Source of the DNA: Atribacterota bacterium
GTDB taxonomy: Bacteria; Atribacterota; Phoenicimicrobiia; Phoenicimicrobiales; Phoenicimicrobiaceae
Length of the DNA: 27,298 nt
Reading direction: 5' to 3'
NCBI GenBank assembly: GCA_038203565.1
Contig: JBBRDV010000015.1
Coordinates: forward strand, 1-27,298
This document shows positions 1,281-26,688 of this stretch, piece after piece. Under the pieces are notes generated by a model. It saw only the letters and a program-made list of their open reading frames with translations, searched no databases and was not told the DNA's origin. Positions within the stretch are counted from its first letter, which is position 1, and each line of letters begins with the position of its first letter. The position numbers and the translations under genes were made by a program.

Positions 1281-1465
1281 TTTAGTATTTAGTATTTAGT
1301 ATATAGTATATAGTATATAGTAAAGAAGAAAGAAAAGAAAAGTTCAAATTGAAATTAGTTTACCAGTTAATGTAGCAACACGGCGTATCGTTTTGAATTA
1401 ACCTGAGATACAATTTTAGGTTTTGTTCTTTTTTACTAAATACTAAATACTATATACTATATACT
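1281..1465. repeat. Inverted heptamer-array element
   Basis: (TTTAGTA)3(TATAGTA)3 at 1281-1322 and complementary (TACTAAA)2(TACTATA)2TACT at 1434-1465. Confidence 0.95.
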
Positions 1466-1491
1466 TATTTATAGGGGAGGAGAAGATAAAC

Positions 1492-2508
1492 ATGCTAGGA
1501 ATGGATAGAAGTCTGGGCATAGATCTGGGTACCGTAAGTGTCTTAATCTATCAGAAGGGGAAAGGAATTGTCCTTCAGGAACCTTCAGTAGTTTCTATTT
1601 TTAGAGATAGCGGAAAAGTTTTAGCTGTGGGAGAAGAAGCCAAGCAAATGTTAGGTAAGACACCGGGGAACATAATTGCTATTCAGCCTATGAAGAGCGG
1701 AGTTATCGCCGATTATGAGATAACAGAGAAGATGCTAAGTTATTTTATCAGAAAAGTTTGTGGTAATAGTAAGCTGTTCCGTCCTCAGGTAGTAATTTGC
1801 GTACCGTCGGGAGGAACAGAAGTAGAAAAAAGAGCAGCAATAGAGGCAGCTATGCAGGCTGGAGCAAGGAAAGCATATTTAGTTGAAGAACCAATGGCGG
1901 CAGCTATTGGAGCCGGCCTAGATATTAGTGAACCTTATGGCAATATGATTGTTGACGTGGGGGGAGGAACCGCAGATATCGCCGTTATCTCATTAGGTGG
2001 GATTGTGGTGAGTGAATCATTGAGAGTAGCGGGTAATAATTTTGATGAAGATATTATTAAATATATTAAAGAAAAATACAGGTTAATGATTGGCGAAAAA
2101 ACTGCTGAAACTTTAAAGATTGAAATCGGTACTGCCATGGAATTAGAAGAAGAATTGTTTTCCGAAATAAGAGGGAGAGATTTAGTATCCGGGTTGCCCA
2201 AGAGTATTTCGGTCGGCTCTAATGAAGTGCTCAAATCCATTTCTGCTTCGTTGAAGACAATAATAGAGGGAGTTAAAACAGTTTTGGAGAAAGTTCCCCC
2301 TGAACTGGCAGCTGATATTGCTAATAAAGGAATTGTTATCACCGGTGGAGGAGCATTATTGAGAAATTTCGATGATTTATTAACTGAAGTGACCGGAATA
2401 CCGGTTTATTTAGCTGAAAATCCAATTTCATGTGTAGCTTTAGGTGCGGGGAAAGTTTTAGACAATATTCATGTACTTAGGAGTGGATTAGTAAGTTCGT
2501 ACAAGTAA
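1492..2508 (+). CDS. mreB: Rod shape-determining actin-like protein, MreB/Mbl family
   Basis: GIDLGT, EPSVV, EEPMAAAIGAG, DVGGGT, IGEKTAE and TGGGALL motifs; position after murA matches mbl. Confidence 0.95.
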   Translation: MLGMDRSLGIDLGTVSVLIYQKGKGIVLQEPSVVSIFRDSGKVLAVGEEAKQMLGKTPGNIIAIQPMKSGVIADYEITEKMLSYFIRKVCGNSKLFRPQVVICVPSGGTEVEKRAAIEAAMQAGARKAYLVEEPMAAAIGAGLDISEPYGNMIVDVGGGTADIAVISLGGIVVSESLRVAGNNFDEDIIKYIKEKYRLMIGEKTAETLKIEIGTAMELEEELFSEIRGRDLVSGLPKSISVGSNEVLKSISASLKTIIEGVKTVLEKVPPELAADIANKGIVITGGGALLRNFDDLLTEVTGIPVYLAENPISCVALGAGKVLDNIHVLRSGLVSSYK

Positions 2509-2577
2509 ATTGACCAATTAACCAATAAACCAATAAAATAATTGGCCGATTCACCAATTTACCGATTGACCAATTAA

Positions 2578-2630
2578 GTAGGGGTCGAATTTATTCGACC
2601 CGAAACGGGTTCGATGAATCGAACCCCTAC
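2578..2630. repeat. REPIN-like inverted pair of GTAG REPs
   Basis: GTAGGGGTCGAATTTATTCGACCCG-AAA-CGGGTTCGATGAATCGAACCCCTAC; each half is a GTAG foot plus an internal palindrome. Confidence 0.88.
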
Positions 2631-2636
2631 ACTTAG

Positions 2637-2662
2637 ATAGACATGCGAGATGTCTGTCCTAC
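2637..2662 (-). repeat. GTAG REP, second family
   Basis: Reverse complement GTAGGACAGACATCTCGCATGTCTAT matches 24155-24180 at 23/26 positions. Confidence 0.8.
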
Positions 2663-2817
2663 GGTTTTATTAGATTATTGTGGATGTATAGTAATACACC
2701 AATGCGTCTTTTTCAAACTTGCAACTTGTAACCCGAAACCTATTAACTGGTAAACTGGCTAACCGGCTAACCATCCTCGCGAGATACGAGATACAATTTT
2801 TGATAAAGAAGGAAAAG

Positions 2818-4656
2818 ATGAAGATAAAATTAAATAAAAATATTTGTAGAAAAATTATATTTATTTTATTAATTTTATTTAGTACGGGCATAAATTTAGT
2901 CTTTAGCAAGAATGCTTTTATGCCAGTTTCAGAGATAAGTCCGGGGATGAAAGGGATAGGAAAAACTGTTTTTCACGGAACGCAGATAGAGACCTTTCAG
3001 GTGGATATCATTGATATAGTTAAAGGCGAAGGCGGAGTTAGTCATTTTATATTAGCTAGTTTAGGCGGAGATAAGATTAAAGAGAGTGGCGGGATCTCAG
3101 AAGGGATGAGTGGCAGCCCGGTCTATATAGATGACAGATTGATTGGAGCTGTATCTTATACCTGGGAAATGAGTGAACATAATCTCTGCCTTGTAACCCC
3201 CATTCAAGAGATGTTAGAAATATTAAATCTCCCCTATAATAACAGTCACACTATATCGCAAGAATATAAGATCAATAATTCTTTATGGTTTACAGGGGAA
3301 AAAGCAAACGAGATAAAAGTAAAAAATTCTATGAAAAATAATAATTTTCCAGAATTAGCAGGCCGAGAGGATTTTATCTTTTACCCCGTAGTTTCACCGA
3401 TTATTATAAACGGCATTAAGGGTAGAACTTTAGAGAGATTAAGCAGTTCTCTAAAAAAATATAATCTTATGCCTGTTCAAGGAATCGGGTTTAATGAAAA
3501 TAATGATATAAGCTTTCAAGATGTGGGAGAAAGACCTTCTAATGAAATAGAAGCTGGTTCTGCCATAGGAATACAATTAACTCGGGGAGATGTCAATATT
3601 ACTTCTATCGGAACAGTAACTTATCGAGAAGGAGATAAGATTTTGGCTTTAGGGCATCCTTTTTTAAAAAAGGGTGAAGTTTCATTTTTTCTTTCCGCAG
3701 TATATATCTATCATAGTTTGCCTAATATAGTTATGCCCTTTAAATTAGGTGCTCCTTTAAATTTGGTAGGGAAGATTGTCCAGGATAGAGAAGCAGGTAT
3801 ATTAGCCATAATGAATTCTTATCCCCGGGTGATTCCGCTTAAAATACAGGTAACAGATGTTAGTTCAGGATTATCTTACCAGATGGGAGTCCAGATGATA
3901 AATGATTATGATCTGTTAGAGCCCCTGGTTTCAAACATAGTTGTGCAGGCTATAGATAATGCTTTGGGTAGGATTGGAGCGGGAACTGCTCAAATAGATA
4001 TAGAGATAAAAGGGAAGAAAGAAGGACAAAAACTTTTCCGGAAGAATATGTATTACAGTTCAGATGACATAGCTACACAGGCGATTACCGAAATACCAGA
4101 AATTATAAATTTAATCGCAAATAATTATTTTGAAATAGTCGATTTGGTAGCGATAAATATCGATATTAAAATAGATAATAAAAAGAAAATTGGCAGGATA
4201 GAGGAAGTTGTATTAGAAGATTCTTCAATTAAGCCGGGAGATCATCTTAAAGCAAAAATTAAAATTAGACCTTTTCGGGGAGAGTTAATCGAAAAGATGC
4301 TAACTATTCAGATTCCTTCCGATACACCTCCAGGCGAAGCTTTATTAATAGTAAACGGAGGAGGAGAGTTAGATAATCAACAAGAAGAGTCTATTAATAG
4401 CAGTAAACAGAATTATAAAAACTTAGAAGAGACTTTTAAGGATATTTCTGACCGACCAAGAGGCAATCAAATTATTGGAGAAGTAATTATATATTCTGAT
4501 GGATTACCTTACGAAGAAAATGTTAGTGATAGCGCCCTGAGGAAAAAAGAAGAAGAGGATTTAATAATTTCTAAGATCGAAACAGATAGGGTTATTGAAG
4601 GATACCTGGAGATACCTTTTACAATATTAGAAAATAAATTAGTCGTTAGTGAATAG
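2818..4656 (+). CDS. SpoIVB-like peptidase S55 domain protein, probably exported
   Basis: GMKGIGKTVFHG, GISEGMSGSPV and ALGHPF motifs; hydrophobic N-terminus. ATG 2818 after AAGAAGGAAAAG is preferred, because the 2719 extension reads through repeat DNA. Confidence 0.85.
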   Translation: MKIKLNKNICRKIIFILLILFSTGINLVFSKNAFMPVSEISPGMKGIGKTVFHGTQIETFQVDIIDIVKGEGGVSHFILASLGGDKIKESGGISEGMSGSPVYIDDRLIGAVSYTWEMSEHNLCLVTPIQEMLEILNLPYNNSHTISQEYKINNSLWFTGEKANEIKVKNSMKNNNFPELAGREDFIFYPVVSPIIINGIKGRTLERLSSSLKKYNLMPVQGIGFNENNDISFQDVGERPSNEIEAGSAIGIQLTRGDVNITSIGTVTYREGDKILALGHPFLKKGEVSFFLSAVYIYHSLPNIVMPFKLGAPLNLVGKIVQDREAGILAIMNSYPRVIPLKIQVTDVSSGLSYQMGVQMINDYDLLEPLVSNIVVQAIDNALGRIGAGTAQIDIEIKGKKEGQKLFRKNMYYSSDDIATQAITEIPEIINLIANNYFEIVDLVAINIDIKIDNKKKIGRIEEVVLEDSSIKPGDHLKAKIKIRPFRGELIEKMLTIQIPSDTPPGEALLIVNGGGELDNQQEESINSSKQNYKNLEETFKDISDRPRGNQIIGEVIIYSDGLPYEENVSDSALRKKEEEDLIISKIETDRVIEGYLEIPFTILENKLVVSE

Positions 4657-4872
4657 TGAATAGTCGTTAGCAATAAACGCAAAATGCAAAACTAGTTTTT
4701 GGTTTATGGTTTTTAGTTTTTAGATAAGGAAATTAGTTTTCAGTTAATAGTTGCAAGATGTAAGGTACACAGTTTATTCAAATTTACAGTCGCTTAATCA
4801 ATTCAGTTAACTTGTTTTGATTTTATTTCCTTAACTAAATAACTAGGTAACTAGCTAACCAAATCAATTAAT
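4639..4872. repeat. Composite array element
   Basis: TTAGTCG/ATAGTGA 7-mers, AAAACGC-type 7-mers, GTTTTTR 7-mers, stem TAAGGAAAT (4725-4733)/ATTTCCTTA (4825-4833), then AACTAGST-type 8-mers. Confidence 0.85.
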
Positions 4873-4875
4873 TGG

Positions 4876-5592
4876 ATGGTAAAGATGAAAATAGTAGCTT
4901 TAATTGCGGCTGCCGGCAAGGGTAAAAGGATGAATACCAGAATAAGTAAGCCCTTCATTCCTATTTCTGGTAAATACATTCTAGCCTATACTATTGAAAA
5001 ATTTGAAAAATGCAAATTAATTGACAAAATATATCTCATAATTAGCCCTGAGGAAAGGGAGATATGTCATAAAAATATAATATTAAAATACAGCTTTTCT
5101 AAAGTTCAAGAATTAGTTGATGGAGGAGAAACCAGGCAGGATTCAGTATATAATGGTATTAAGGCATTGGATAAGGATACAGATATAGTGGTGATTCACG
5201 ATGGTGCCCGCCCTTTAGTTGAAGAAACTATTATTCGGGATTCAATTGAAAAAGCACAGAGATATGGAGCAGCAATTGCAGCTATTCCCGTTAAAGATAC
5301 CATAAAAAAGATCGATAATAATTTTTTTATAAAAAAAACCCTTAATCGAGAAAAGATTTGGAGAGCACAAACCCCTCAAACTTTTAAATATAATATAATT
5401 TTAGCTGCTTATCGTCAGGCTTACGAAGAGAAATATTTAACCACAGACGATGCAGCGATTGTAGAAAGGTATGGACATAAAGTAAAATTAATAATAGGTT
5501 CAGAGGAAAATATTAAAATAACCACTCCTTTTGATATCATTATAGCAGAGAATTTCTTAAAGAAAGGCTTTAGATTTAAGTTTAAATTATGA
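4876..5592 (+). CDS. ispD: 2-C-methyl-D-erythritol 4-phosphate cytidylyltransferase
   Basis: AAAGKGKRM, GGETRQDSV, IHDGARP, AQTPQ, TDDA and NIKITT motifs; the start may be ATG 4885. Confidence 0.96.
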   Translation: MVKMKIVALIAAAGKGKRMNTRISKPFIPISGKYILAYTIEKFEKCKLIDKIYLIISPEEREICHKNIILKYSFSKVQELVDGGETRQDSVYNGIKALDKDTDIVVIHDGARPLVEETIIRDSIEKAQRYGAAIAAIPVKDTIKKIDNNFFIKKTLNREKIWRAQTPQTFKYNIILAAYRQAYEEKYLTTDDAAIVERYGHKVKLIIGSEENIKITTPFDIIIAENFLKKGFRFKFKL

Positions 5593-6446
5593 AAGAAATT
5601 GAAATAGATAGCTATTCCAAGATAAATTTGACTCTAAATATACTGGGAAAACGCCGGGATGGATATCATAATATCGAAACTATAATGCAATCTATTAATC
5701 TTGCTGACAGGATATTTATTAAGGAAGAGGAAGAAGGGATAAAGATAAAATGCAGTCATCCTTTGGTACCCACCGATACCCAAAGTTTAACTTATAGATC
5801 AGCAGAGAAGATTCTCAATAGATGTAGAATAAAAAGGGGAGTTCAGATAGAAATTGATAAAAAAATTCCTTTAGCCAGTGGGATGGCGGGTGGTTCTGCT
5901 AATTCTGCCTCTATTTTAGTAGGAATAAATAAACTTTTTGCTTTAAATTTAAGTGATAAAGATTTAAGAGAGATAGGAGAAGAATTAGGAATGGATGTTC
6001 CTTTTTTTATCCAGAATGGTACTGCCCTTGCTTATCATAGGGGAGAAAAAATAACTCCTCTACCCCCGATTAACCCACCACTGTGGATTATAGTAATAAA
6101 TCCTGGGTTTGAAATACCTACTAAGTGGGCTTACAATAATCTTGATTTGGATCTGATTAAGAGGGAGAAGAATAATACTACAGCCATGCTTAAAGCTTTA
6201 AAAGAGGGAGGGCTTGAGGGCATTACTAAAAATCTATTTAATTCCTTCGAAGAGTTAATTATTAAAAAATATCGGGAAATTGGAAAAATCAAAGATAGAT
6301 TAATAGAAGAGGGTACTTTGGGTACCCTTATGTCCGGCAGTGGTCCTACAGTTTTTGGAATAGCCCAAAACAAAGAACAGGCTATAAAGATTTACGAAAA
6401 ATTAAAATTAGAATACAAATCAATCTGGGCAGTGCAGACAATCTAA
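5589..6446 (+). CDS. ispE: 4-diphosphocytidyl-2-C-methyl-D-erythritol kinase
   Basis: KINLTL, DGYHNIETIMQ, KKIPLASGMAGGS and MSGSGPTVF motifs; ATGA overlap with ispD. Confidence 0.96.
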   Translation: MKEIEIDSYSKINLTLNILGKRRDGYHNIETIMQSINLADRIFIKEEEEGIKIKCSHPLVPTDTQSLTYRSAEKILNRCRIKRGVQIEIDKKIPLASGMAGGSANSASILVGINKLFALNLSDKDLREIGEELGMDVPFFIQNGTALAYHRGEKITPLPPINPPLWIIVINPGFEIPTKWAYNNLDLDLIKREKNNTTAMLKALKEGGLEGITKNLFNSFEELIIKKYREIGKIKDRLIEEGTLGTLMSGSGPTVFGIAQNKEQAIKIYEKLKLEYKSIWAVQTI

Positions 6447-6512
6447 AACAGTATATAGTATATACTATATACTGTTTTCTCGCGATACTCGATACACGAT
6501 ACTATATACTAA
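6445..6512. repeat. Perfect 34-bp heptamer palindrome followed by a CGATACN array
   Basis: AAAACAGTATATAGTAT|ATACTATATACTGTTTT at 6445-6478, then CGCGATACTCGATACACGATACTATATACTAA at 6481-6512. Confidence 0.93.
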
Positions 6513-6530
6513 TAAAAAGAGGGGAAAGTA

Positions 6531-7001
6531 ATGCGAATAGGTTTTGGATATGATGTCCATCCTTTAATTTTGGGGAGAAAATTAATTTTAGGAGGAGAGG
6601 TTATTCCGTACCAAAAGGGTTTGAATGGACATTCAGATGCCGATGTTTTAATTCATTCCCTAATAGATGCTTTATTAGGGGCAGCAGGAGAAGGAGATAT
6701 CGGCCAGCATTTCCCGGATAATGATGAACAATATAAAGATATTTCCAGCCTAAAGTTATTGGAAAATATTTATGAAATATTAAAAAGAAAGAAACTTACC
6801 ATAAATAATATAGATGCTTCCGTAGTATTAGAAGAACCACGAATTGCGCCTTTTATTATGAGCATGAAAAATAATATAGCTCAAGTTTTGAAAATATCCT
6901 CTGAAAAGGTGAATATTAAAGCTACAACTAATGAGAAGATGGGTTTTATTGGCAGAAGAGAGGGTGCAGCTTCTTATTGTGTGGTTAGTTTGAATGAGTA
7001 A
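6531..7001 (+). CDS. ispF: 2-C-methyl-D-erythritol 2,4-cyclodiphosphate synthase
   Basis: MRIGFGYDVH, GHSDADVLIH, GDIGQHFP and VNIKATTNEKMGFIGR motifs. Confidence 0.97.
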   Translation: MRIGFGYDVHPLILGRKLILGGEVIPYQKGLNGHSDADVLIHSLIDALLGAAGEGDIGQHFPDNDEQYKDISSLKLLENIYEILKRKKLTINNIDASVVLEEPRIAPFIMSMKNNIAQVLKISSEKVNIKATTNEKMGFIGRREGAASYCVVSLNE

Positions 7002-7034
7002 ATATTTTTTATAAGGGGGAAAAGAATAGTAATT

Positions 7035-7433
7035 ATGAAAAAGGAAGAAGAAGTAAGAGATAAGAAAACAGAAAAAGACGAAGAGATAAAAGAGAAAAAG
7101 ACGCAGAAAGAGGAAAAAGAAGGAATAAAAGAGAAAGCTAAAAAAGAAGAAAAAAAACAAGAAGAAGGTTTTAAAGAACCCGATTTACCTGTTCTTTTTG
7201 TTTGGTTTATAAGTATGTTGAGCGGAAAAGCCTGGGAGTATTTGGGTCTCATCATGAATCCCGAGACTAAGGAAATGAATAAAGATTTAAAAAAAGCTAA
7301 AATTACCATAGATACTGTAGCATTTTTATACGATCAGATTAAAGATTATTTAAATCCGGAAGATTTTAAGCGGATCGAAAATTTACTGGCAAATTTAAGA
7401 ATGAATTATGTGGAGAAGTTGAAAGAATCATAA
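7035..7433 (+). CDS. DUF1844-like protein with a charged low-complexity N-terminus
   Basis: K/E-rich N-terminus; C-terminal AWEYLGLIMNP...AKITIDT...LANLRMNYV resembles DUF1844; SD AAGGGGGA. Confidence 0.7.
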   Translation: MKKEEEVRDKKTEKDEEIKEKKTQKEEKEGIKEKAKKEEKKQEEGFKEPDLPVLFVWFISMLSGKAWEYLGLIMNPETKEMNKDLKKAKITIDTVAFLYDQIKDYLNPEDFKRIENLLANLRMNYVEKLKES

Positions 7434-7548
7434 GATGCTTCTGATTGCTTAGTTTTACAATTAAATAAAACCAATTAGTAAGATAGGCATTCTGTTTGTC
7501 TATACTAAGGAATATTAACAAGAAAAAAGCGGGGAAGGTGCAAGAATA

Positions 7549-8475: not shown

Positions 8476-8531
8476 AGTGAAATAGAAACAAAAGCTGAAG
8501 AAAGTATACCGGAGGAGAAAGGTGACTAGCT

Positions 8532-8758
8532 TATAGCGTTTAGCGTATAGTATATAGTAAAAACAAGTATATAGTATCGAGTATAGAGTATATAGCAATA
8601 AAAATAAGAGAGAGAAAAGTAGTAGGGGCAGACCTTGTGTCTGCCCGCAATAAATATTGTGCTGTAGGGGCTCGATTCATCGAGCCCGAAAGAAAATAAT
8701 CACTGAACGGGGCGGATAAATTCGCCCCCTACAATAAAAAGTAACGATTAACGACTAA
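8532..8758. repeat. Composite array element with three GTAG REPs
   Basis: TATAGYR-type 7-mers 8532-8596, purine linker, REPs 8622-8647 (+), 8664-8688 (+) and 8708-8731 (-), terminal TAACGATTAACGACTAA. Confidence 0.9.
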
Positions 8759-8760
8759 AA

Positions 8761-9387
8761 GTGGGAGGAAGAATAATCTTAAAGGAAAAAGCAAGCATCA
8801 AACGTTTAGGGATAATGGGTGGAGTATTTGACCCCATACATTATGGACATTTATTTACAGCTGAAGAAGCAAGAGTTGAATTTAAATTAGATAAAGTAAT
8901 ATTTGTACCCTGTCGCCAGCCTGCTCACAAAAGAGAAAATGATATATCTGCCCCTGAAGATAGATATTTAATGACAGTCCTGGCCACTAGCAATAACCAA
9001 TTTTTTGAGGTATCCAAAGTTGAACTCAATAGGCCGGGACCTTCTTATTCTACAGACACTGTTAAAGAATTTTTAAAAAAATATAACCATAGTGTGAAAA
9101 TATTTTTTATTACCGGGGCTGATGCTTTTTTAGAGGTAGATTCCTGGTATAAAAGTGAGGAATTAATTAAGCTTTGTCAGTTTGTGGCTGCAACCCGACC
9201 AGGATATGATTTGAATAAATTAGACGAAAAATTTAAAAAAATTATTAAAATTATGGAAATTCCCGCCTTATCTATATCTTCTACTGATATCAGAAGAAGA
9301 GTGAGAGAAGGGAAAAACATAAAATATTTACTCCCCCAAGAAGTGGAAGAATACATCTACAAAAAAGAATTATATCGTAAAATGTAA
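8761..9387 (+). CDS. nadD: Nicotinate-nucleotide adenylyltransferase
   Basis: GIMGGVFDPIHYGH, FITGADA and ISSTDIRRR motifs; nadD-yqeK-rsfS synteny; start codon uncertain. Confidence 0.95.
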   Translation: MGGRIILKEKASIKRLGIMGGVFDPIHYGHLFTAEEARVEFKLDKVIFVPCRQPAHKRENDISAPEDRYLMTVLATSNNQFFEVSKVELNRPGPSYSTDTVKEFLKKYNHSVKIFFITGADAFLEVDSWYKSEELIKLCQFVAATRPGYDLNKLDEKFKKIIKIMEIPALSISSTDIRRRVREGKNIKYLLPQEVEEYIYKKELYRKM

Positions 9388-9421
9388 CATTTAGTGCCTG
9401 GCCCAAAATGTTACATTTTAC
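9377..9421. repeat. 16-bp perfect inverted repeat with a 13-nt loop
   Basis: GTAAAATGTAACATTT (9377-9392) / AAATGTTACATTTTAC (9406-9421). Confidence 0.9.
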
Positions 9422-13084: not shown

Positions 13085-13264
13085 AATTCACCAATTAATC
13101 AATTTACCGATTTGCCAATTCACCGATTCACCAATTAATTTAATCTACTAGTCTACCGGTCAACCAGTCCGCCGGTCTTCCGGTCAATACGTCAGGTAAT
13201 ACGTCATTTCAAACTTTCGTTAAATTTAAAACTTGCAACTCGTAACTTGAAACTTGCAACCTAT
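13085..13264. repeat. Composite array element
   Basis: RATTYACC-type 8-mers 13085-13137, RGTCNNCC-type 8-mers, AATACGTCA twice, AACTTGC-type 7-mers ending in AACCTAT. Confidence 0.88.
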
Positions 13265-13410: not shown

Positions 13411-13749
13411 ATGAAAGGAACTATAGTAAATGTAATTGCCATTTTTTTAGGGTGTTCTGTGGGATTTATTTTGAAGAGTAGATTTCCTGAAAAGATTGGG
13501 AAGATTGTAATGCAAGCCTTGGGGTTAGCTTCCTTATTGATTGGTGCACAGATGGCCCTCAAAACGAACAATATTTTATTGGTCATTTTTTCCCTGGTAA
13601 TTGGTGGAGTGATCGGGGAGATAATAGGCATTGAAGAAGGTCTGGAAAGATTTGGGGAAAGAGTTAAGCTAAAATTTAAAAGCAATGATACCTCAGAAAG
13701 ATTTGTAGAGGGATTTGTAACTGCCAGCTTGTTATATTCGTTTTATTGA
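13411..13749 (+). pseudogene. 3'-truncated DUF554 (YqgA-like) membrane protein
   Basis: GTIVNVIAI...SLVIGGVIGE...FVEGFVTASLLY matches the N-terminal half of DUF554; stops at 112 aa, roughly half the usual length. Confidence 0.75.
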
Positions 13750-13803
13750 TTAGTGGATTGTTTAGTTGTATAATTGATTAAATCGCTATAATCAATCGAA
13801 TTA
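13736..13803. repeat. Degenerate ATTGWTTA-like array with an internal inverted repeat
   Basis: ATTGATTA, ATTGTTTA, GTTGTATA and ATTGATTA units, then complementary TAATCAAT. Confidence 0.55.
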
Positions 13804-15742: not shown

Positions 15743-16013
15743 TTAGTTAGCCAGTTAATAAGTCGTTAGTATGTAGTATATCGTATATCGTATATCCGAA
15801 GCGTAAAGCGAAAAACGCAAAACTGAATTCGTATCTCGTATTGTGTATTGCGTATTACGTTCAGATTTAAATGACAAAAAGAAAGAGAAAACCCGCAATC
15901 TGGAAGATAACTATTTACTTGTCACATATTACCCATCACCGTTTCTCTCTGTTTTATGGCTCCTATTACTATTTTCTTCACGATATACGATATACGATAT
16001 ACGATATACGAGA
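15743..16013. repeat. Composite inverted array element
   Basis: Left arm AGTTAGCC, TAAGTCG, TATCGTA, AAAGCG/AAAACG and CGTATY 7-mer blocks; purine/pyrimidine inner stem; right arm (CGATATA)4CGAGA at 15981-16013. Confidence 0.92.
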
Positions 16014-17138: not shown

Positions 17139-18201
17139 AGATAAAAGTATAATATTACAAAATCTAAAAGAATCTTCAGCTGAATGGATTAACGGGCAAG
17201 GCCCTTTATCGGATATAGTGATCAGTTCGAGAATTAGATTGGCACGAAATGTAGAAGGAATTCCTTTTTCACCACGAGCTGAGCAAGCGGAATTAAAAAA
17301 TATATTTGAGCTTAGCCGACAGATTGTAGAAGAAGATTCTCTCTTTAAGGATTCTAATTTACTTTTATTGGATGAATTAACCCCCCTGGAGAGTCAATTT
17401 TTAGTGGAAAAACATCTAATTAGCATTTATCATGCTCAAGAGAAACACCCTTACCGAGGGTGTGTTTTTAATCAAAAAGAGACATTAAGTGTAATGGTTA
17501 ACGAAGAAGACCATTTTCGAATTCAATATTTACTTTCAGGGTTGCAATTAAATAATATTTGGAAACTTATTAATAAGATTGACGATGAAATTGAAAAAAA
17601 GGTAACTTATGCCTTTAGCGAAAAAGAAGGATATTTAACTTCCTGTCCTACTAATGTAGGAACCGGAATGAGGGCTTCAATAATGTTACACCTGCCAGCC
17701 CTAGCAATGGTAAACGGTATAAATGATATATTTAGAGCCATATCTAAAATAGGTTATGTAGTGAGAGGATTTTATGGAGAGGGAACCGAAGTAATGGGAA
17801 ATTTATTTCAGGTTTCCAACCAAATTACTTTAGGTCTTTCAGAAGAAGAAATTATCGACAATTTGGAAAAGGTTAATCAACAGATAATAAACAAGGAACA
17901 GAAAGTAAGGAAAGAACTATTATCTAATTCTAAAAGTCAGTTGGAAGATCAAGCATGGAGAGCTTATGGTATCTTAAGTAGTGCCCGCATCATATCTTCG
18001 GCGGAAGCAATGGAACTGTTATCTAAATTAAGGTTCGGAGTAGGGTTAGGGATAATTCCTCATCCTAATTTAGGGACTTTAAACAAATTGATGTTACTAA
18101 TACAACCAGCCTATTTGCAAATGTTAACAGGCAAAGATTTAGATCATTTAGGCCGGGATCTGCAAAGAGCGGTGTTGATTAGAAATGAGATTAATCGTTA
18201 G
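17128..18201 (+). CDS. mcsB: Protein arginine kinase
   Basis: SSRIRLARN, MVNEEDHFRIQ, GYLTSCPTNVGTG and FQVSNQITLG motifs. Confidence 0.96.
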   Translation: MQNKDKSIILQNLKESSAEWINGQGPLSDIVISSRIRLARNVEGIPFSPRAEQAELKNIFELSRQIVEEDSLFKDSNLLLLDELTPLESQFLVEKHLISIYHAQEKHPYRGCVFNQKETLSVMVNEEDHFRIQYLLSGLQLNNIWKLINKIDDEIEKKVTYAFSEKEGYLTSCPTNVGTGMRASIMLHLPALAMVNGINDIFRAISKIGYVVRGFYGEGTEVMGNLFQVSNQITLGLSEEEIIDNLEKVNQQIINKEQKVRKELLSNSKSQLEDQAWRAYGILSSARIISSAEAMELLSKLRFGVGLGIIPHPNLGTLNKLMLLIQPAYLQMLTGKDLDHLGRDLQRAVLIRNEINR

Positions 18202-18310
18202 TTGTTAGTATATAGTATATAATATATAGTAACCTGAAAGCTAAAAACCAAAAACCAAAAACCAAAAACCAAGAACTAACGACTAATTTAATTGGTGAAT
18301 TGGCAAATTA
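18191..18310. repeat. Composite array element overlapping the mcsB stop
   Basis: TTAATCG TTAGTTG TTAGTAT ATAGTAT..., (AAAAACC)4, ACTAACGACTAA, AATTGGTG AATTGGCA. Confidence 0.9.
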
Positions 18311-18373: not shown

Positions 18374-20812
18374 ATGTTTAAAAGATATACCGAAAAAGCA
18401 AAGAGGGCTATAATGATAGCTCAAGAAGAAGCGATAAACCTAAATCATGACTACATAGGGACTGAACATATTCTTATTGGTTTAATAAAAGAAGAAGAAG
18501 GAGTCGCTTCCCAGGTTTTAAGACAATTGGGGGTAAATGTAGATAAAGTAGTAGAAGAGGTAGAACGATTAGTAGGAAAAGGTGAGTATCAGCAAGTGGG
18601 TGAGATTGCTTTTACTCCTCGAGCGAAAAAAGTCTTAGAATTAGCTTCGCAAGAGGCAAGCCAATTAAAAAATAACTATATTGGCACCGAACACATATTA
18701 TTAGGTTTAATAAAAGAAGGAAGCGGAGTAGCGGTTAGAATTTTAGCAGACTTGGGTATTAATCTGGATAATGTTTATTCTGAAATCATGAAAGTTCTAA
18801 TGGAGGGTGAGGCTCAAGGTTTTCCATCTGCTCCAGGAAAAAGAACCACGAAGACTCCTGCTTTAGATGAATTTGGAAGAGATTTAATTAAATTAGCCCG
18901 AGAAGATAAATTGGATCCGGTTATTGGCAGGAGCACGGAAATTCAAAGAGTGATACAAATTTTAAGTAGAAGAAAAAAAAACAATCCCTGCATAATAGGA
19001 GAGGCTGGGGTAGGAAAGACGGCTATTGTAGAGGGTTTGGCTCAGAAGATAACTAATAATGATGTTCCGGAGATATTAAAAGAAAAAAGAATTATCTGCC
19101 TTGACCTAGCTTTAATTGTTGCTGGCACTAAATACCGAGGTGAATTTGAAAAGAGATTAAAGAAGATTGTTAAAGAGGTTCAGGAATCAAATGATGTCAT
19201 ATTATTTATTGATGAAATACATACCCTGGTAGGAGCCGGAGCAGCTGAAGGAGCAATAGACGCTTCTAATATATTAAAGCCTGCTTTAGCAAGGGGAGAG
19301 CTTCAAGTTATTGGTGCAACTACTGCCGATGAATACCGCAAGTATATTGAAAAAGATGCTGCTTTAGAGCGAAGATTTCAACCTATTTATATATCTGAAC
19401 CTTCGATAGAAGAGACTATTATGATATTGCAAGGACTTAAGGACAAGTATGAAGCTCATCATAATATAAAAATTACCGATCAAGCATTAGAGGCAGCAGC
19501 ACATTTGTCAGCTCGTTATATTTCGGGTAGATTTTTACCGGATAAAGCTATCGATTTGGTAGACGAAGCGGCTTCCAGGATTAAATTACAAAACACTATT
19601 TCTCCACCTGACATAAAAGAAGTAGAAATGAAATTAAATAAAATAAGGAAGGAAAAGGAATCAGCAGTAAAATTGCAAGAATTTGAAAAAGCAGCTCAAC
19701 TAAGAGATAAAGAAAAAAAGTCGGAAGCTGAACTCCAAAAGATAAAAGAAAAATGGAAGACCAGAAGAATGGTTAGTAAAGTGGAAGTTATAGGAGAAGA
19801 TATTGCAGAAATTGTATCCAGCTGGACCGGGATTCCAATTTTTTCTCTTAAAGAGGAAGAAGCACAAAAACTACTTAGAATGGAGGAGGAATTACATAAA
19901 AGGATAATTGGACAGGATGAAGCTATTATATCTATTTCTAAAGCTGTAAGAAGAGCCCGAGCTGGGATGAAAAGCCCCAAACGTCCCATTGGTTCTTTTA
20001 TATTTTTGGGACCTACCGGAGTAGGCAAAACAGAATTAGCCCGTACTTTAGCAGAATTTCTTTTTGGTGATGAAAATGCATTGATTAGTTTAGATATGTC
20101 AGAATATATGGAAAAATTTGCTGTTTCCCGATTGATTGGAGCTCCCCCTGGTTATGTGGGGTATGAGGAGGGAGGTCAATTAACTGAAAAAGTTAGAAGA
20201 AAGCCTTATTCGGTAATTCTATTAGACGAGATAGAAAAAGCACACCCCGATGTCTTTAATATATTACTACAAATATTTGAAGATGGTAGATTGACTGATT
20301 CCCAGGGGAGAGTAGTAGATTTTAAAAATACAGTTATTATTATGACGTCTAATGTTGGGGCTACCCTGATTAAAAAAGAAGCCACTTTAGGATTTCGGGG
20401 GACCAATGAATCTGAAGAGATTTCCTATAAAGAGATAAAAAATAGAGTAATGGGAGAGTTGAATAAAACTTTTCGACCGGAATTTTTAAATCGAATTGAT
20501 GAGGTAATAGTCTTTAAATCCCTTACTAAAGAGGAAATTAAAAAAATAGCTAGTCTAATAATAAACAATGAAGTAAAAAAATTATTAGAAGAGCGAAAGA
20601 TTGACCTGGAAACAACGGAGGAAATTAAAGAATTATTGACTAAAGAGGGATATGATTCTAATTTTGGAGCTCGTCCTTTAAGGCGGACCATTGAAAGATT
20701 GATAGAAAATCCTATTTCTGAAAAGTTATTGGCTGGTGAATTTGAAGAAGGGGATTGTATATTAATTAAGGCAAAGGACGGGAAAATAATGTTTTCTAAA
20801 AAGAAAAAATAA
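18374..20812 (+). CDS. clpC: ATP-dependent Clp protease ATP-binding subunit
   Basis: Two Clp-N repeats, Walker A motifs GEAGVGKT and [11 protein letters not shown] middle domain, LGF loop. Confidence 0.97.
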
Positions 20813-20836
20813 CCAGATTAAGACAGAGGAGCTAAA

Positions 20837-22213
20837 ATGGCTAAAGAAGAAAAAGCTTTTTTTCGGTGCCAGCAATGTGGCTATGAATCTTCCAGGTGGT
20901 TGGGGCGTTGTCCAGATTGTGGAGGATGGAATACTTTAATTCAAGAAGTATTTAAAGAAGAGAAAAAATATTCTCTTCATCCTGAAGGGCATTCTATACC
21001 TTTACCCATTAGCAAAATTGAGGTAGAAGAAGAAAGTAAATCGAGATATAGAACAGAAATTTCGGAGTTTGATAGAGTATTGGGTGGGGGGATTGTCCCT
21101 GGTTCCCTAATTTTAGTTGGGGGAGAACCGGGCGTTGGAAAATCTACCCTTCTTTTACAAATAGCCAATTCCTTGAGCAGCAACTGTGGGGTAATATTAT
21201 ATATTTCTGCAGAAGAATCACTTTATCAGATTAAATTAAGAGCTACCCGATTAGGTGTTCTTGCGGAAAAGCTTTTTTTAGTTTCTGAAACCGATATAGA
21301 AGTTATAAAAAAACATATCAGTGAAATTAAACCAAAAGTGGTTATTGTAGATTCTATTCAAACTATTAATGATTACGAGATTAGTTCCTCACCAGGAAGC
21401 ATTAGTCAGGTAAGAGAATGTACTGCTCAATTAATGCGTTTAGCCAAGAGTAAAGAAATTTCTGTCTTTATTATTGGACATGTAACTAAAGGAGGGATGC
21501 TAGCCGGACCTAAAGTTATTGAACATATTGTAGACACCGTTCTCTATCTGGAGGGTGAAAAATACAATATTTACCGGATACTTCGTTCTACAAAGAATAG
21601 ATTTGGTTCTACCAATGAATTGGGGATATTTAAAATGGGAGAGAAAGGCTTGATAGAAGTATTAAATCCTTCTGAATTGCTTCTTTCAGAAAAACCTTCC
21701 CATGTTTCTGGTTCAGTGGTGGCAGCTACTTTTGAAGGCAGTAGGCCATTATTGGTGGAGATGCAAGCGTTGGTGAGTTATAGCAGTCTGGGTATACCTC
21801 GAAGAATGACTACTGGCGTAGACTATAATCGGGTTTTACTTATCCTGGCGGTTCTCGAAAAAAGAGTGGGATATTCCTTACGCTCTCAAGATGTTCATGT
21901 AAATATTGCTGGTGGGATAAAGGTATTAGAACCTGCCTTAGATTTGGCTATTAGTATGGCTATAGCTTCAAGCTTTAAGGACGTGCCGATTGATCCAACT
22001 ACAGTTATATTTGGAGAAGTAGGGCTGGCTGGAGAAGTTAGGATGGTGAATCAGGTAGAAAAACGGATACAGGAAGTATTTAAAATGGGCTTTAAAAGAT
22101 GCATTCTTCCAAAAAGCAATTTAAAGAATTTAAACAATTTTTCATCAAAAAAAGGTTTAGAGATTGTAGGAGTAAAGACTGTTCAAGAAGCTATCAACCT
22201 TGCTCTTAATTAG
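20837..22213 (+). CDS. radA: DNA repair protein RadA/Sms
   Basis: C4 zinc finger, GEPGVGKST, KNRFG and Lon-like C-terminus. Confidence 0.97.
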   Translation: MAKEEKAFFRCQQCGYESSRWLGRCPDCGGWNTLIQEVFKEEKKYSLHPEGHSIPLPISKIEVEEESKSRYRTEISEFDRVLGGGIVPGSLILVGGEPGVGKSTLLLQIANSLSSNCGVILYISAEESLYQIKLRATRLGVLAEKLFLVSETDIEVIKKHISEIKPKVVIVDSIQTINDYEISSSPGSISQVRECTAQLMRLAKSKEISVFIIGHVTKGGMLAGPKVIEHIVDTVLYLEGEKYNIYRILRSTKNRFGSTNELGIFKMGEKGLIEVLNPSELLLSEKPSHVSGSVVAATFEGSRPLLVEMQALVSYSSLGIPRRMTTGVDYNRVLLILAVLEKRVGYSLRSQDVHVNIAGGIKVLEPALDLAISMAIASSFKDVPIDPTTVIFGEVGLAGEVRMVNQVEKRIQEVFKMGFKRCILPKSNLKNLNNFSSKKGLEIVGVKTVQEAINLALN

Positions 22214-22221
22214 TTAACCAA

Positions 22222-22620
22222 TTAGGTAAGATTATAAATACCTAAAGTTGAGATTCTTTCTTCTTCTTTTTTAATTATTTCATCAAAATCTAAATTTAAT
22301 ATGTTACATATTGCGGTAGCATAAAAAAGACTTGAACCTAATTCTGTTTCGACAATTTCTTTACAACTATCACATAATGAGCCTTCTATATGGGCATCCA
22401 TGAATTTATAGATTTCCATCAATTTTGCATTAGAAGGAATGGTTTGCTTCTTTGCTTTAATTTGTATACAACCGCATTGGGTAACCGCTTTAGCAATTGC
22501 TCGGTTTACACGGGCGTTAGATTCTTGATATTTAGTCATAAGGTCAAGGATACTCCGATGCTGGATTAAAAATTGGTTGACACTTTTTTGAAAAGTAACA
22601 TTTCCATTTTCTTTGTTCAT
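22222..22620 (-). CDS. Conserved hypothetical Cys-containing protein
   Basis: ATG 22620 after GGGGT; HRSILD...KAVTQCGC...LCDSCKEIVETELG; own promoter upstream; resembles small proteins found near radA in Clostridia. Confidence 0.7.
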   Translation of the reverse strand: MNKENGNVTFQKSVNQFLIQHRSILDLMTKYQESNARVNRAIAKAVTQCGCIQIKAKKQTIPSNAKLMEIYKFMDAHIEGSLCDSCKEIVETELGSSLFYATAICNILNLDFDEIIKKEEERISTLGIYNLT

Positions 22621-22713
22621 AATCAGTACCCCCAGGAAAACATTTTGCCATTTAGATAAATGCCGAGATAGTTTTAATGAAATTACTAAAATACTCAATT
22701 TTAACTTTATTTA

Positions 22714-22743
22714 ATTATACTTACAGGTTAAGCTCTTTGTCAA
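22714..22743 (-). promoter_or_regulatory. Sigma70-type promoter (minus strand)
   Basis: TTGACA-18 nt-TATAAT on the reverse strand. Confidence 0.65.
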
Positions 22744-22761
22744 GGAATTATTATTCTTATT

Positions 22762-22790
22762 TTGACAGAAATAAGGGAGCATGCTATAAT
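22762..22790 (+). promoter_or_regulatory. Consensus sigma70 promoter with extended -10
   Basis: TTGACA-17 nt-TATAAT with TGn. Confidence 0.8.
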
Positions 22791-22995
22791 TTATTTGGTT
22801 TTTAGAGAATCAAAGGAATAACTTAAGAGTTTGAAGATTTAGTATTTGGGTAATGAGTTTATTAGAGCTATAAGTATCAAATTAAAACAATTTGAGATAT
22901 TATTTAAAAAATACAATTTGGTAATAGAAAAAAGGGGAGGTGTTAATTCTATATTTTTTTATAAATAAAATAGCGCATAGAAGGAGGAAATAACT

Positions 22996-24120
22996 ATGCC
23001 AGCAAAAAGAATTTTAAAAATCATGTTTATTATTGTTGGCGCAGTGATAGGCTACGGGGCATATAATAAATTCTATTTTATTTCTGACTTATATATTTAT
23101 TATGATATTTTATTCAGGATCTTAGCAATAACTGGAGGAGGAACAGTTGGTTTTTTGTTCTCCTTTTTATTTAATACCAAAATCCAAAGTTTATTTTCAG
23201 AAATTATTTGCCATTTACAGAAAATACCCACTCAAAACTTTGCTGCTGCTACAATTGGATTAATTATTGGTCTTATTATTGCAAATTTGTTAGCCTATTC
23301 ACTCTCATTTATTCCTATAATTGGTTCCTATCTTCCTATTATATTAAGCGTGATACTAGGATCTTTAGGGATAAATATAGGAATTAATAAAAAAGATGAA
23401 GTATTTAATTTTTTTGGATATTTTAGAAATATTAATAAAGTAAGAGGAAAAGAAAATAGTAAGAATTTTGTCCATCCCAAGATCTTAGATACGAGTGTAA
23501 TTATTGATGGTCGTATTTTAGACATTTGTCAGACAGAATTTTTAGAGGGTGAACTTATAATCCCCCGTTTTGTTTTGTCTGAGCTCCAGCATATTGCCGA
23601 TTCTTCGGATTCTTTAAAAAGGAACCGAGGGCGCCGAGGTTTAGATATACTTAATAAAATGACTAAAATCAGAAAGAATAAGGTAAAAATTGTTGGCAAA
23701 GATTACAATGAACCCAAAGAGGTTGATGCCAAGATAATTAAACTTGCGAAAGAGATTAAAGCAAAAGTAATAACTAACGATTATAATTTGAATAAAGTTG
23801 CCCAGCTTGAGGGGATTCCTGTTTTGAATATCAATGATTTATCTAATGCTCTAAAGGCGGTTATCTTACCTGGCGAGGAAATGAATACCCAAATAATAAA
23901 GGAAGGCAAAGAACCAGAGCAGGGGATTGCTTATCTTGATGACGGTACCATGATAGTAGTGGAAGATGGGCACAAATATATTGGGAAAAAAGTGAATATT
24001 TTAGTAACCAGTATTTTGCAAACTCCTGCCGGTAGGATGATCTTTGGCAGGGTAAAAAGTGTAATGGATAGAAAATCTAATGAATTTAAAAATGTAGTTA
24101 GATTATCTTCAAGACAATAA
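22996..24120 (+). CDS. Membrane-anchored PIN/TRAM domain protein (YacL family)
   Basis: N-terminal TMs; KILDTSVIIDGRI, TNDYNLNKVA, YLDDGTMIVVE and LQTPAGRMIF motifs. Confidence 0.93.
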   Translation: MPAKRILKIMFIIVGAVIGYGAYNKFYFISDLYIYYDILFRILAITGGGTVGFLFSFLFNTKIQSLFSEIICHLQKIPTQNFAAATIGLIIGLIIANLLAYSLSFIPIIGSYLPIILSVILGSLGINIGINKKDEVFNFFGYFRNINKVRGKENSKNFVHPKILDTSVIIDGRILDICQTEFLEGELIIPRFVLSELQHIADSSDSLKRNRGRRGLDILNKMTKIRKNKVKIVGKDYNEPKEVDAKIIKLAKEIKAKVITNDYNLNKVAQLEGIPVLNINDLSNALKAVILPGEEMNTQIIKEGKEPEQGIAYLDDGTMIVVEDGHKYIGKKVNILVTSILQTPAGRMIFGRVKSVMDRKSNEFKNVVRLSSRQ

Positions 24121-24123
24121 TAT

Positions 24124-24318
24124 TCGTATATCGTATATAGTGAAGAAAATAGAAGTAGGACAGGCGTCTCGCCTGTCTATTAGTCAATTAACCACTAACT
24201 TAACTGGTAAACTGGCTAACTTTAATCTTGCACCGTGCTTTTATCCATGAATTCTGATTGTCTTCACGCGATACTCGATACGCAATACGATATACTAACG
24301 ATTAATTTTACCAGTTAA
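24124..24318. repeat. Composite inverted array element with a REP
   Basis: TCGTATA array + GTGAAGAAAATAG linker + REP 24155-24180 + AACTGGYW 8-mers + TCTTCAC + CGATACN array + TAACGATTAA. Confidence 0.92.
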
Positions 24319-24352
24319 TTAAAATAAATTAAGATTTGAAAAGGTACAAAAA

Positions 24353-25795
24353 ATGGCGTTAAAGATATATAATACTTTGACTCGAAGGAAAGAAGAATTT
24401 ATCCCCCTTAAAGAAGGAGAAGTTGGGATGTATGTTTGTGGACCTACAGTTTACAATTACATTCATATAGGGAATGCTCGACCCTTTATAACCTTTGAAG
24501 TAGTTAGAAGGTTTCTAAAATTTAAAGGTTATAAGGTAAAATACATACAAAATATAACTGATATCGATGATAAAATGATAAATAAAGCAAAAGAATTAAA
24601 GATTACAGTCTCGGAATTAGCGGAAAAATTTATTCAAGAGTATTTTATTGATGCTGATTCACTTAATATAGAAAGAGCAGATGTTCATCCTCGAGCAACA
24701 GAACACATCAAGGAAATAATAGAACTGGTAAACGGATTAGAAGAAAAAGGATATGCTTACGAAATAGACGGTGATGTATTTTTTAATGTATCTAAATTTA
24801 AAGGTTACGGAAAACTTTCTGGTCAAAATATCGAAGAACTAAAAGAAGGAGCTCGAGTAGAAGTAGATGAAAGAAAAAAGGAACCTATAGATTTTGCCTT
24901 ATGGAAAAGAGCGAAGGAAGGAGAACCCTCATGGGAGAGTCCCTGGGGGAAGGGAAGACCCGGTTGGCATATTGAATGTTCTGCTATGTCGATGAAATAT
25001 TTGGGAAAAAGTTTTGATATACATACCGGGGGTTCAGATTTAATCTTTCCTCATCATGAAAATGAAATTGCCCAAAGCGAAGCTTACACTAATCAACAGT
25101 TTGTAAGGTACTGGATGCATAATGGTTACCTTTGTTTAAATAATCAGAAAATGTCTAAATCTTTAGGAAATATAATGAAGGTAAGAGACATCAGCCAGAA
25201 ATACAAAGGAGAAATAATTCGGTATTTCATCCTTTCAGCTCATTATAGGAGTCCCCTTAATTTTAACGAGGAGCAACTTCAGCAAGCAGAGAGCAGTTTG
25301 CAGAGATTAAATAATACAATTTTTAATGTAAAACATTTATTAAAACAAGGTAAATTTAGAAAATCAAAAGATAAAAATGATGAGCTGATCTTAGAAAAAA
25401 GAAAAGAAAATGAACAAAAATTTATAGAAGCTATGGATGATGATTTTAATACCCCTGTTGCCCTAAGCTGGTTATTCAGTTTTGCCAGAGAGGTAAATAC
25501 CTACCTGAACTCTCCGAGCACAAAAAATAAAGAAGTGTTAGAAAAAATTCTTAAATTTTATCAGGAATTAGCCGGTGAAATATTGGGGATTTTGAAAGTC
25601 TTTGATCAAGAAGAAAGTTTCGAGCAAGAAATTAAGAAATTAATTGAAGGGAGAGAAGAGGCGAGAAAAAAGAGGAATTGGGTTGAATCGGATCAAATTA
25701 GAGATAAATTGAAGGAAAAAGGAATACTTCTCGAAGATACCTCTAGCGGTGTGAGGTGGAAGAGGATATACGAATTTTCAAGGAGGAACAATTAA
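24353..25795 (+). CDS. cysS: Cysteine--tRNA ligase
   Basis: YVCGPTVY, HIGN, GRPGWHIECS, FPHHENE and KMSKS motifs. Confidence 0.98.
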   Translation: MALKIYNTLTRRKEEFIPLKEGEVGMYVCGPTVYNYIHIGNARPFITFEVVRRFLKFKGYKVKYIQNITDIDDKMINKAKELKITVSELAEKFIQEYFIDADSLNIERADVHPRATEHIKEIIELVNGLEEKGYAYEIDGDVFFNVSKFKGYGKLSGQNIEELKEGARVEVDERKKEPIDFALWKRAKEGEPSWESPWGKGRPGWHIECSAMSMKYLGKSFDIHTGGSDLIFPHHENEIAQSEAYTNQQFVRYWMHNGYLCLNNQKMSKSLGNIMKVRDISQKYKGEIIRYFILSAHYRSPLNFNEEQLQQAESSLQRLNNTIFNVKHLLKQGKFRKSKDKNDELILEKRKENEQKFIEAMDDDFNTPVALSWLFSFAREVNTYLNSPSTKNKEVLEKILKFYQELAGEILGILKVFDQEESFEQEIKKLIEGREEARKKRNWVESDQIRDKLKEKGILLEDTSSGVRWKRIYEFSRRNN

Positions 25796-26427
25796 TGAGG
25801 CTAAAAGAAGGGGATGGGAGTTTTATTAATTGCCGGAATTGTGATGATGAAGAGCTTATTTGCTTAGCTTACCAAGGAAATTTGTTAGCAGAAGAATGTT
25901 TGATTAATAGATATAAAAAATTAGTAAAAATAAAGGCTCGCTCGTATTTTTTGGTCGGTGCTGATACGGAAGATATCATTCAGGAAGGAATGATTGGACT
26001 TTACAAAGCAGTAAGAAGTTATCAATTTAAAAAACTTTCCTCTTTTAAGGCATTTGCTGAATTATGTATTACTCGGCAGATTATTACAGCCATAAAAAGT
26101 GCTACCCGGCAAAAACATATACCTTTAAATTCATACATATCTCTTAATAGACCAATTTATAATGAGGATTCTGACAGAACCTTATTGGATATTGTAGATA
26201 ATATGAACATTAATGATCCTCAGGACTTATTTTTAAACAGTGAAAAATTGAACAATCTAAAAGTGAGAATCAAAAGAATATTATCAGAATTAGAAAGAGA
26301 TGTTTTGGAATCTTATTTAGATGCTAAATCTTATCAAGAAATTGCAGCTAATTTAGGAAGGCATGTAAAGTCTATAGATAATGCTTTACAAAGGATAAAA
26401 AGGAAGTTAGAATTAATTACGAAATAG
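25795..26427 (+). CDS. sigH: RNA polymerase sigma factor SigH
   Basis: ARSYFLVGAD.EDIIQEGMIGLYKA, AIKSATRQKHIPLNSYISL and KSIDNALQRIKRKL; ATG 25795 after AAGGAGG overlaps the cysS TAA. Confidence 0.93.
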   Translation: MRLKEGDGSFINCRNCDDEELICLAYQGNLLAEECLINRYKKLVKIKARSYFLVGADTEDIIQEGMIGLYKAVRSYQFKKLSSFKAFAELCITRQIITAIKSATRQKHIPLNSYISLNRPIYNEDSDRTLLDIVDNMNINDPQDLFLNSEKLNNLKVRIKRILSELERDVLESYLDAKSYQEIAANLGRHVKSIDNALQRIKRKLELITK

Positions 26428-26452
26428 CTTTTAAAAATAGCTTTTAAAAAGA

Positions 26453-26481
26453 TTGACTTAATTATTAAAAATAACTATAAT
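26453..26481 (+). promoter_or_regulatory. Promoter of the tRNA-tuf operon
   Basis: TTGACT-17 nt-TATAAT, 10 nt before the first tRNA. Confidence 0.8.
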
Positions 26482-26491
26482 ATGTAGAATC

Positions 26492-26567
26492 GCCGATGTA
26501 GCTCAGTTGGCAGAGCAGCTGATTTGTAATCAGCAGGTCATCCGTTCGAACCGGATCATCGGCTCCA
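26492..26567 (+). tRNA. tRNA-Thr (TGT)
   Basis: 76-nt cloverleaf, anticodon arm GCTGA-TT-TGT-AA-TCAGC, TTCGAA T-loop, encoded CCA. Confidence 0.96.
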
Positions 26568-26580
26568 AGATGATAAAGCA

Positions 26581-26688
26581 GTATCTCGTGAATCGTATCT
26601 CGCAAAGATGCAATAATTAAGGATATCAAATGAATATTTAAAACCTGTTTTCTATAACGAGATACGGACGACGATATACGAGATACGA
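26581..26688. repeat. Inverted heptamer-array element in the tRNA spacer
   Basis: GTATCTC GTGAATC GTATCTC G ... ACGAGAT ACGGACG ACGATAT ACGAGAT ACGA. Confidence 0.88.

Follow-up and report, generated by a model that had tools for sequence, protein, structure and literature searches.

Introduction

The short tandemly repeated repetitive (STRR) sequences of cyanobacteria are intergenic 7-mer arrays of the same kind as those described here. Repetitive extragenic palindromes (REPs), their doublets (REPINs), and the REP-associated tyrosine transposases (RAYTs) form a second familiar system, and the likeness to it is limited to nested hairpins of a GTAG type. In diversity-generating retroelements (DGRs), the accessory protein Avd is a pentamer that binds nucleic acid. 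This report concerns the intergenic spacers of a 27,298-nucleotide (nt) stretch from an Atribacterota bacterium (assembly GCA_038203565.1, contig JBBRDV010000015.1, positions 1 to 27,298 of the forward strand), referred to as the window. Eleven spacers, named here by window position (example, 4639), had been singled out in an earlier note as a non-autonomous system built of 7-mer and 8-mer arrays. Ten of them are probably the stacked, gene-less leftovers of promoterless cassettes that carry a four-helix-bundle gene (TIGR02436, the 23S rRNA intervening-sequence protein, or IVP) between inverted arms of 7- or 8-base repeats, and that probably move from one gene junction to another with the aid of the ring protein they encode and of host repair enzymes.

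Related genes have been described elsewhere. The 23S rRNA intervening sequence of Coxiella, which encodes S23p, contains heptameric direct repeats upstream of its open reading frame (ORF), with a variable number of units and decay of the ORF (accessible part of PMC4990558). IVP genes have also been reported between cas genes (accessible part of PMC3936711).

IVP Cassettes in Related Genomes

The genome of the window (G000) is 1.97 Mb in length and 99% complete, and the window is its contig C15. IVP genes were present in 35 of 41 genomes. G000 has two, both of one clade, and none was found in G001. The 111 IVP loci taken, with about ten of the weakest matches excluded, gave 115 records at 53 sites defined by their flanks, a count in which tandem cassettes within one locus can merge sites. 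Twenty-four of the 115 records are broken.

Periodic DNA is present on both sides in 89 of the 99 records with full flanks, and 72 of these 89 are more inverted than direct. The median number of units per arm is 4-5. Mean arm similarity over the cassettes is 0.33 for the cassette's own arms in inverted orientation, 0.04 in direct orientation, and 0.03 for arms of other sites. The earlier note had suggested that four-helix-bundle genes can be flanked by such arrays. This was borne out, as both G000 genes adjoin 7-mer arrays and inverted arms are found in relatives. One clade breaks the inverted-arm rule: at locus L001 (1100-1600), a single leader composed of an array and a ribosome-binding site (RBS) precedes both the IVP gene and the next gene, in direct orientation.

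Arms at different sites have a similarity of 0.64 where the proteins are at least 90% identical (77 pairs), 0.40 at 80-90%, and 0.02-0.04 below 60%. Pairs at the same site with proteins less than 60% alike have an arm similarity of 0.01-0.06. By these alignments, arm sequence tracks the protein subfamily and not the site, with each subfamily having its own repeat word.

When the window spacers were aligned to the cassette arms of relatives, 10 of the 11 contained matches. For 27 nt, the left arm of the spacer between tRNA-Thr and tRNA-Tyr (26581) has the same sequence as a clade-1 IVP cassette leader. The arrays lie where the earlier note had placed them, with the exception of 13736, which has no array and no match to cassette arms. 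Its statement that the window spacers lack an ORF stands, and the only Rfam matches are three tRNAs.

Placement by both flanks was possible on G000 for 51 records. The gene is absent from all of these sites except the two loci of G000 itself, and four sites are nearly empty. One G000 spacer on contig C2 is a cassette minus its gene, with approximately 290 bp lost between 13-nt direct matches. A nucleotide search for IVP remnants returned 62 matches against 9 in reversed controls, most of which are arm matches from broken records with misplaced bounds; inspection by eye upheld just two, C2:48030 and C42:7681. Cassette sites occur empty, gene-filled, or arm-filled.

Cassettes share the orientation of their neighbours in 67 of the 68 cases called upstream (8 uncalled) and in 58 of the 59 called downstream (11 uncalled). 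The first periodic block lies no more than 13 nt from the upstream stop codon in 28 of 35 cassettes. In relic arms, the left type stands ahead of the right type in 78 of 84 pairs.

Strict co-orientation is also what would be expected of retrotransposition, in which an Avd-like ring recruits a reverse transcriptase (RT) to copy the hairpin RNA. A match to DGR Avd that is weak and falls short of the cut-off (E 4.6e-6), together with a group II intron-like RT in G000, points the same way. This RT (L216, 359-3171, contig C54) is split into two ORFs and lies inside what is, to judge by its motifs, an IS3-like element. Retrotransposition is nevertheless very unlikely: a dedicated RT is improbable because RT genes are present in only 15 of the 41 genomes (5 of the 20 of high quality) as against 35 of 41 for IVP, a comparison in which metagenome-assembled genomes may leave RT genes unassembled.

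Variation at the Same Junctions

Among genomes whose MreB is 93-98% identical, the murA-mreB gap is 24 nt at its shortest (G012, empty) and 388 nt at its longest, and the array families in it differ. The mreB-spoIVB-like spacer has a close match in G012 and an unrelated sequence in G001. Empty alleles exist at the spoIVB-ispD junction in one of 10 loci (G009), at the TPR-nadD junction in one of 14 (G012), and at the tRNA pair in two of 13 genus-level loci, where they are 24 nt long. The ispE-ispF spacer is 66-481 nt in 14 genomes and the mcsB-clpC spacer 103-677 nt in 12. The 13085 site holds other families in relatives. Across these comparisons, spacer identity is mostly 0.2-0.8 where the flanks are at least 93% alike. 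No arrays were found in the sister family at the sites shown. The presence/absence variation among relatives that the earlier note had anticipated is thus observed, as spacers at one site may be empty, filled, or filled with another family.

Two further differences in length were observed. In the window, as in G007, the gap after radA (22213-22222) is empty (measured length 14 nt); it is 266-350 nt in 8 of 10 loci. In G015 an RT gene (C46, 7022-7693) lies between ispE and nadD, making the region longer.

The spoIVB-like/ispD spacer (4639) was also compared with assembled contigs from run data, which covered window positions 4300-6400. In run X2, 104 other bases replace 234 of this spacer, and the flanks differ at 27 of 1385 bases. 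The very high depth of the 4639 arm in RNA runs traces to many unrelated contigs and so was discarded as evidence of expression.

The same spacer, 251 bp in length, is common to G000 and G007. One 8-mer unit differs, and the flanks are 83% alike. The shared tract ends within approximately 15 nt on the gene side, and just before the RBS on the other. Lateral transfer is the likely explanation.

These data bear on a passive account, in which cassettes move by lateral transfer and by homologous recombination through conserved flanks, slippage alters the arms, and mobility owes nothing to the protein. Indels of unit number, modules of several families common to unrelated sites, a deletion at microhomology, and the lack of a nuclease or recombinase domain in the IVP protein are all consistent with it. 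It accounts poorly for a single protein clade being present, with one word, at up to 10 separate sites, for the different clades that hold one site, and for the sharp edges of the G007 tract between such divergent flanks, and on balance it is unlikely.

Arrays Across the Genome

Tandem Repeats Finder (TRF, score at least 40) identified 134 period-7 arrays in G000, compared with 10 at period 6, 30 at period 8, and 26 at period 9. AC-anchored intergenic arrays of at least four units number 151 at period 7 and 20 at period 8 over the whole genome, and no more than two at any other period from 5 to 11; the intergenic DNA for this count was set by a crude ORF caller. In shuffled G000 intergenic DNA, no AC-anchored arrays of period 7 or 8 were found. 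The arrays are accordingly not confined to the window, and with this intergenic excess of period-7 tandem arrays they are members of the known heptamer-repeat class typified by STRR.

Family labels rest on words derived from the data, because hand-made motif lists were not used for assignment. These words labelled 144 of 219 spacers. Over the whole genome, a generic detector found a spacer's arms paired with their own partner in 9 of 49 cases against 6.3 ± 2.2, which is not significant. With words taken from cassette clades, 19 of 43 two-sided spacers hold a cognate pair against 6.8 ± 2.3. The excess of arm pairing that the earlier note proposed as a test is thus seen with the clade words and not with the generic detector.

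Arrays are present in 134 of 1322 tandem gaps, 9 of 90 convergent gaps, and 15 of 86 divergent gaps. In 56 of 130 tandem gaps, no more than 10 nt separate the stop codon from the start of the first array. Stop codons in all three frames were counted in 17 of 42 cases, compared with 10 for the antisense strand and 8.8 after shuffling, and in 22 of 49, compared with 12 and 6.2. As a reason for periods 7 and 8, three-frame stops received modest support and were set aside; in Xanthomonas the consensus word contains none. The idea that arm families follow a set order was dropped, informative pairs being too few. Enrichment at contig ends as a sign of hidden cassettes was also rejected, the counts being 4 for 436 ends and 30 for 2180 windows in contig interiors.

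The polarity of the arrays and their fixed position at stop codons and RBSs could also suit a host regulator. Under this explanation the arrays are selected sites, at gene boundaries, of a post-transcriptional regulator, either the IVP ring or another RNA-binding protein, as proposed for the heptamers of Beggiatoaceae (accessible part of PMC4679880). Such a role is improbable given how much spacer content varies between well-conserved flanks, the existence of empty alleles, and the lack of a cognate gene in G000 for most words. With only two IVP genes in G000, both of one clade, the majority of array families are without a cognate gene found there.

Spacers of the Window

Long cognate arm pairs are present at 1281, 15743, 24124, and 26581, and short pairs at 6445 and 18191. 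At 2508, 4639, and 8532 the left and right arms come from different families, and 13085 is one-sided. Complementary arms at most loci, as first described, was therefore too strong a statement. Many window spacers are chimeric stacks, not single paired elements. Their neighbours are housekeeping genes, as had been noted, or tRNAs, and the description of these neighbours as co-transcribed fails for 13085 and 15743, which lie between divergent genes.

All spacers below are given on the plus strand unless stated. The murA-mreB spacer (1278-1478) has a 7-mer left arm at the stop codon (1281-1334), a purine-rich linker, and a cognate right arm before the RBS (1434-1465), with a folding z-score of -7.2. 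The mreB-spoIVB-like spacer (2506-2800) is composed of an 8-mer array (2508-2577), a REP doublet, and right-type arms of three other families (approximately 2716-2794). Its REP segment (2578-2664, no strand assigned) contains a GTAG-type doublet (2578-2631), with 15-20 genome copies, and a REP-like hairpin (2637-2664), with three; the doublet motifs flank RAYT-like genes. The spoIVB-like/ispD spacer (4635-4872) is a non-cognate stack of 7-mer and 8-mer arms with a z-score of -0.4, and the upstream reading frame enters its left arm and stops at 4656.

The ispE-ispF spacer (6444-6511) contains a short 7-mer hairpin and a right-type arm (z-score -2.0). Between the TPR gene and nadD (8527-8757) are left arms of two families, three REP hairpins (approximately 8619-8733), and a short right arm. 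The spacer at 13085-13260, on the minus strand, is a one-sided stack that combines one 7-mer array with two 8-mer arrays (z-score -1.5); it lies upstream of a flippase-like gene on the same strand. The non-member at 13736-13800 (no strand assigned) lies upstream of pgk at the junction of a deletion and is a plain hairpin. Beside it, the DUF554 gene (13411-13749) is cut to half its domain by a deletion of approximately 300-580 bp relative to congeners.

The spacer at 15743-16013, upstream of a CsoR-like gene, has a stack of left arms (15767-15860) and a cognate right arm (15980-16013) with an inverted similarity of 0.86 and a z-score of -2.9. The mcsB-clpC spacer (18191-18310) contains a 7-mer left arm, an AAAAACC array, a short outer pair, and an 8-mer remnant (z-score -0.3). 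Between the PIN-TRAM gene and cysS (24118-24310), cognate 7-mer arms surround a REP-like hairpin (24155-24180) and an 8-mer array (z-score -3.8). The tRNA-Thr/tRNA-Tyr spacer (26577-26689) has cognate 7-mer arms and a z-score of -4.5.

GTAG Hairpins and RAYT-like Genes

GTAG hairpins have 3-34 copies per motif in G000. In the window, REP-like hairpins are present in only three of the 11 spacers, where they lie inside the stacks and not at their ends. Among 54 Y1 loci, these hairpins flank RAYT-like genes at four, comprising none of the 34 strong and four of the 20 weaker loci; the strongest Y1 transposases were accordingly rejected as REP partners. A profile search did not detect the cognate RAYT-like gene, which was recovered by tblastn. 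In G000 (C63, 7103-7620), the RAYT-like reading frame stands behind a 7-mer arm, and each of its ends overlaps REP hairpins of its own. One RAYT-like protein scored 64.9 against NF047646, for which the cut-off is 80. With multi-copy GTAG palindromes and a cognate HUH Y1 gene, the nested hairpins are a second, known kind of element, REP-like in nature. A palindrome after nadD (9378-9421) has a loop that resembles repeats flanking the Y1 gene of locus L007.

The earlier note had offered RAYT-type transposases and four-helix-bundle genes as candidate partners. Both are real and belong to different layers: the 7-mer and 8-mer arrays are IVP cassette arms, and the GTAG hairpins are RAYT-like. It is scarcely credible that the composite spacers are moved entire, as REPIN-like units, by a HUH transposase of the RAYT type. 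RAYT-like genes do carry the GTAG hairpins of the window, one of them behind a 7-mer arm, but REPs are internal to the stacks or absent and do not bound them, and the arms follow IVP clades. A GxxExxY partner was also considered and had no matches in G000.

Cassettes in Other Phyla

Of 80 IVP loci in other phyla, 74 were usable. An adjoining array was found at 56 of these, on both sides at 25, compared with 2 of 68 controls. Array periods are 7 (64 arrays), 8 (16), and 9 (1). Two-sided cases are inverted in 31 of 45 and direct in 6. On a quick tree of 91 proteins the periods cluster, with 12 changes against 18.3 shuffled; many forks of this tree are unresolved. The genome collection contains about 15,000 IVP-matching stretches, by estimate.

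A heptamer beside an IVP gene was predicted in advance for Xanthomonas. In the accessible part of PMC4692102, repeat 15 has four units, begins 6 nt past bccP, and abuts XCC0516, a solved five-chain member of the family. The prediction held in part, as the table in that part names no downstream partner for repeat 15. The structures of both solved relatives have five chains each.

Proposed Mechanism

If the window spacers are cassette leftovers, as we favour, the element may work as follows. A promoterless hairpin cassette would ride host transcripts. Its arms would fold into a stem within the transcript and the left arm would often supply stop codons, so that insertion would cost little. The pentameric protein may bind approximately one repeat unit per subunit on a single strand; the ring has five subunits (accessible part of PMC4990558), near the arm median. 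Host recombination would then place a copy of the element at a junction that offers short homology, for which an older arm could serve as a landing pad. Gene loss and recombination between left and right arms would give chimeric stacks that are still transmissible, and RAYT-like enzymes would independently drop REPs into tolerant loops.

Several points weigh against this explanation. Own-partner pairing by the generic detector (9 of 49) is not significant, and only 19 of 43 two-sided spacers hold a cognate pair even with clade-derived words. No IVP gene was found inside the orthologous window spacers scanned, the two mreB spacers (all no more than 410 nt) being outside the scan. With the two IVP genes of G000 in one clade and none found in G001, most families may not be active at present. 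No catalytic, nuclease, or recombinase domain was found in the IVP protein. Protein and arms travelling as one block could explain their co-variation without binding, and the compared genomes include kin that are not independent. Chimeric assembly could account for the G007 match. The density of arrays in tandem gaps (0.98 per kb compared with 0.56-0.59) is a modest excess, and their insertion at stop/RBS junctions may reflect no more than which insertions survive. A 7-nt near-duplication is present at the tRNA site, and by eye no clear target duplication was seen elsewhere.

A cassette origin of the spacers would account for the source of many heptamer repeats in bacteria. It ties together two long-open questions, the function of the very large 23S-IVP family and the origin of heptamer repeats. 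With a dozen or more protein clades having their own words, and with empty and filled alleles, specificity and mobility are directly testable. A broader proposal can be put forward tentatively, as something short of probable: a pan-bacterial, transposase-free class in which the pentameric four-helix-bundle ring reads its own 7- or 8-base word, one unit per subunit, and drives the homing of cassettes and gene-less stacks into transcribed junctions, even across species. This class would be the common source of the STRR, Xanthomonas, and Beggiatoa heptamers and of the 23S rRNA intervening sequences, and would provide a natural library of orthogonal protein-repeat pairs.

Comparison with Known Systems

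The spacers differ from miniature inverted-repeat transposable elements, as their lengths range over 66-712 nt at single sites and the gene between the arms is IVP and not a transposase. DGR Avd (NF033474) belongs to a related fold family, with a weak profile match below the cut-off, and no RT or template repeat was found beside the two G000 IVP genes.

The heptamers of Xanthomonas and Nostoc (PMC4692102) and those of Beggiatoaceae (PMC4679880) share with these arrays the intergenic 7-mers, often of four units and often in inverted pairs a few bases past stop codons. In their accessible parts, these accounts name no link to four-helix-bundle genes and describe one main word per genome, whereas this lineage has a dozen or more, together with 8-mers.

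The ORF-bearing 23S rRNA intervening sequence is alike in having a PF05635 protein within a stem loop. Cassettes in relatives have this protein within a terminal stem, and the two G000 genes have flanking arrays mainly in direct orientation. No 23S rRNA helix was found as a location, the neighbours seen for the window and the cassettes being protein or tRNA genes. Unlike the intervening sequence, the cassettes lie at mRNA and tRNA junctions, at dozens of sites, with clade-specific inverted periodic arms and gene-less stacks. By analogy, the cassette appears to work like an ORF-bearing 23S intervening sequence that lies outside rRNA. No published account of clade-specific arms or of mRNA-junction cassettes outside rRNA was found, in a search to which subscription papers and bioRxiv supplements were outside coverage. 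Heptamers inside the Coxiella element are already known from the accessible part of PMC4990558.

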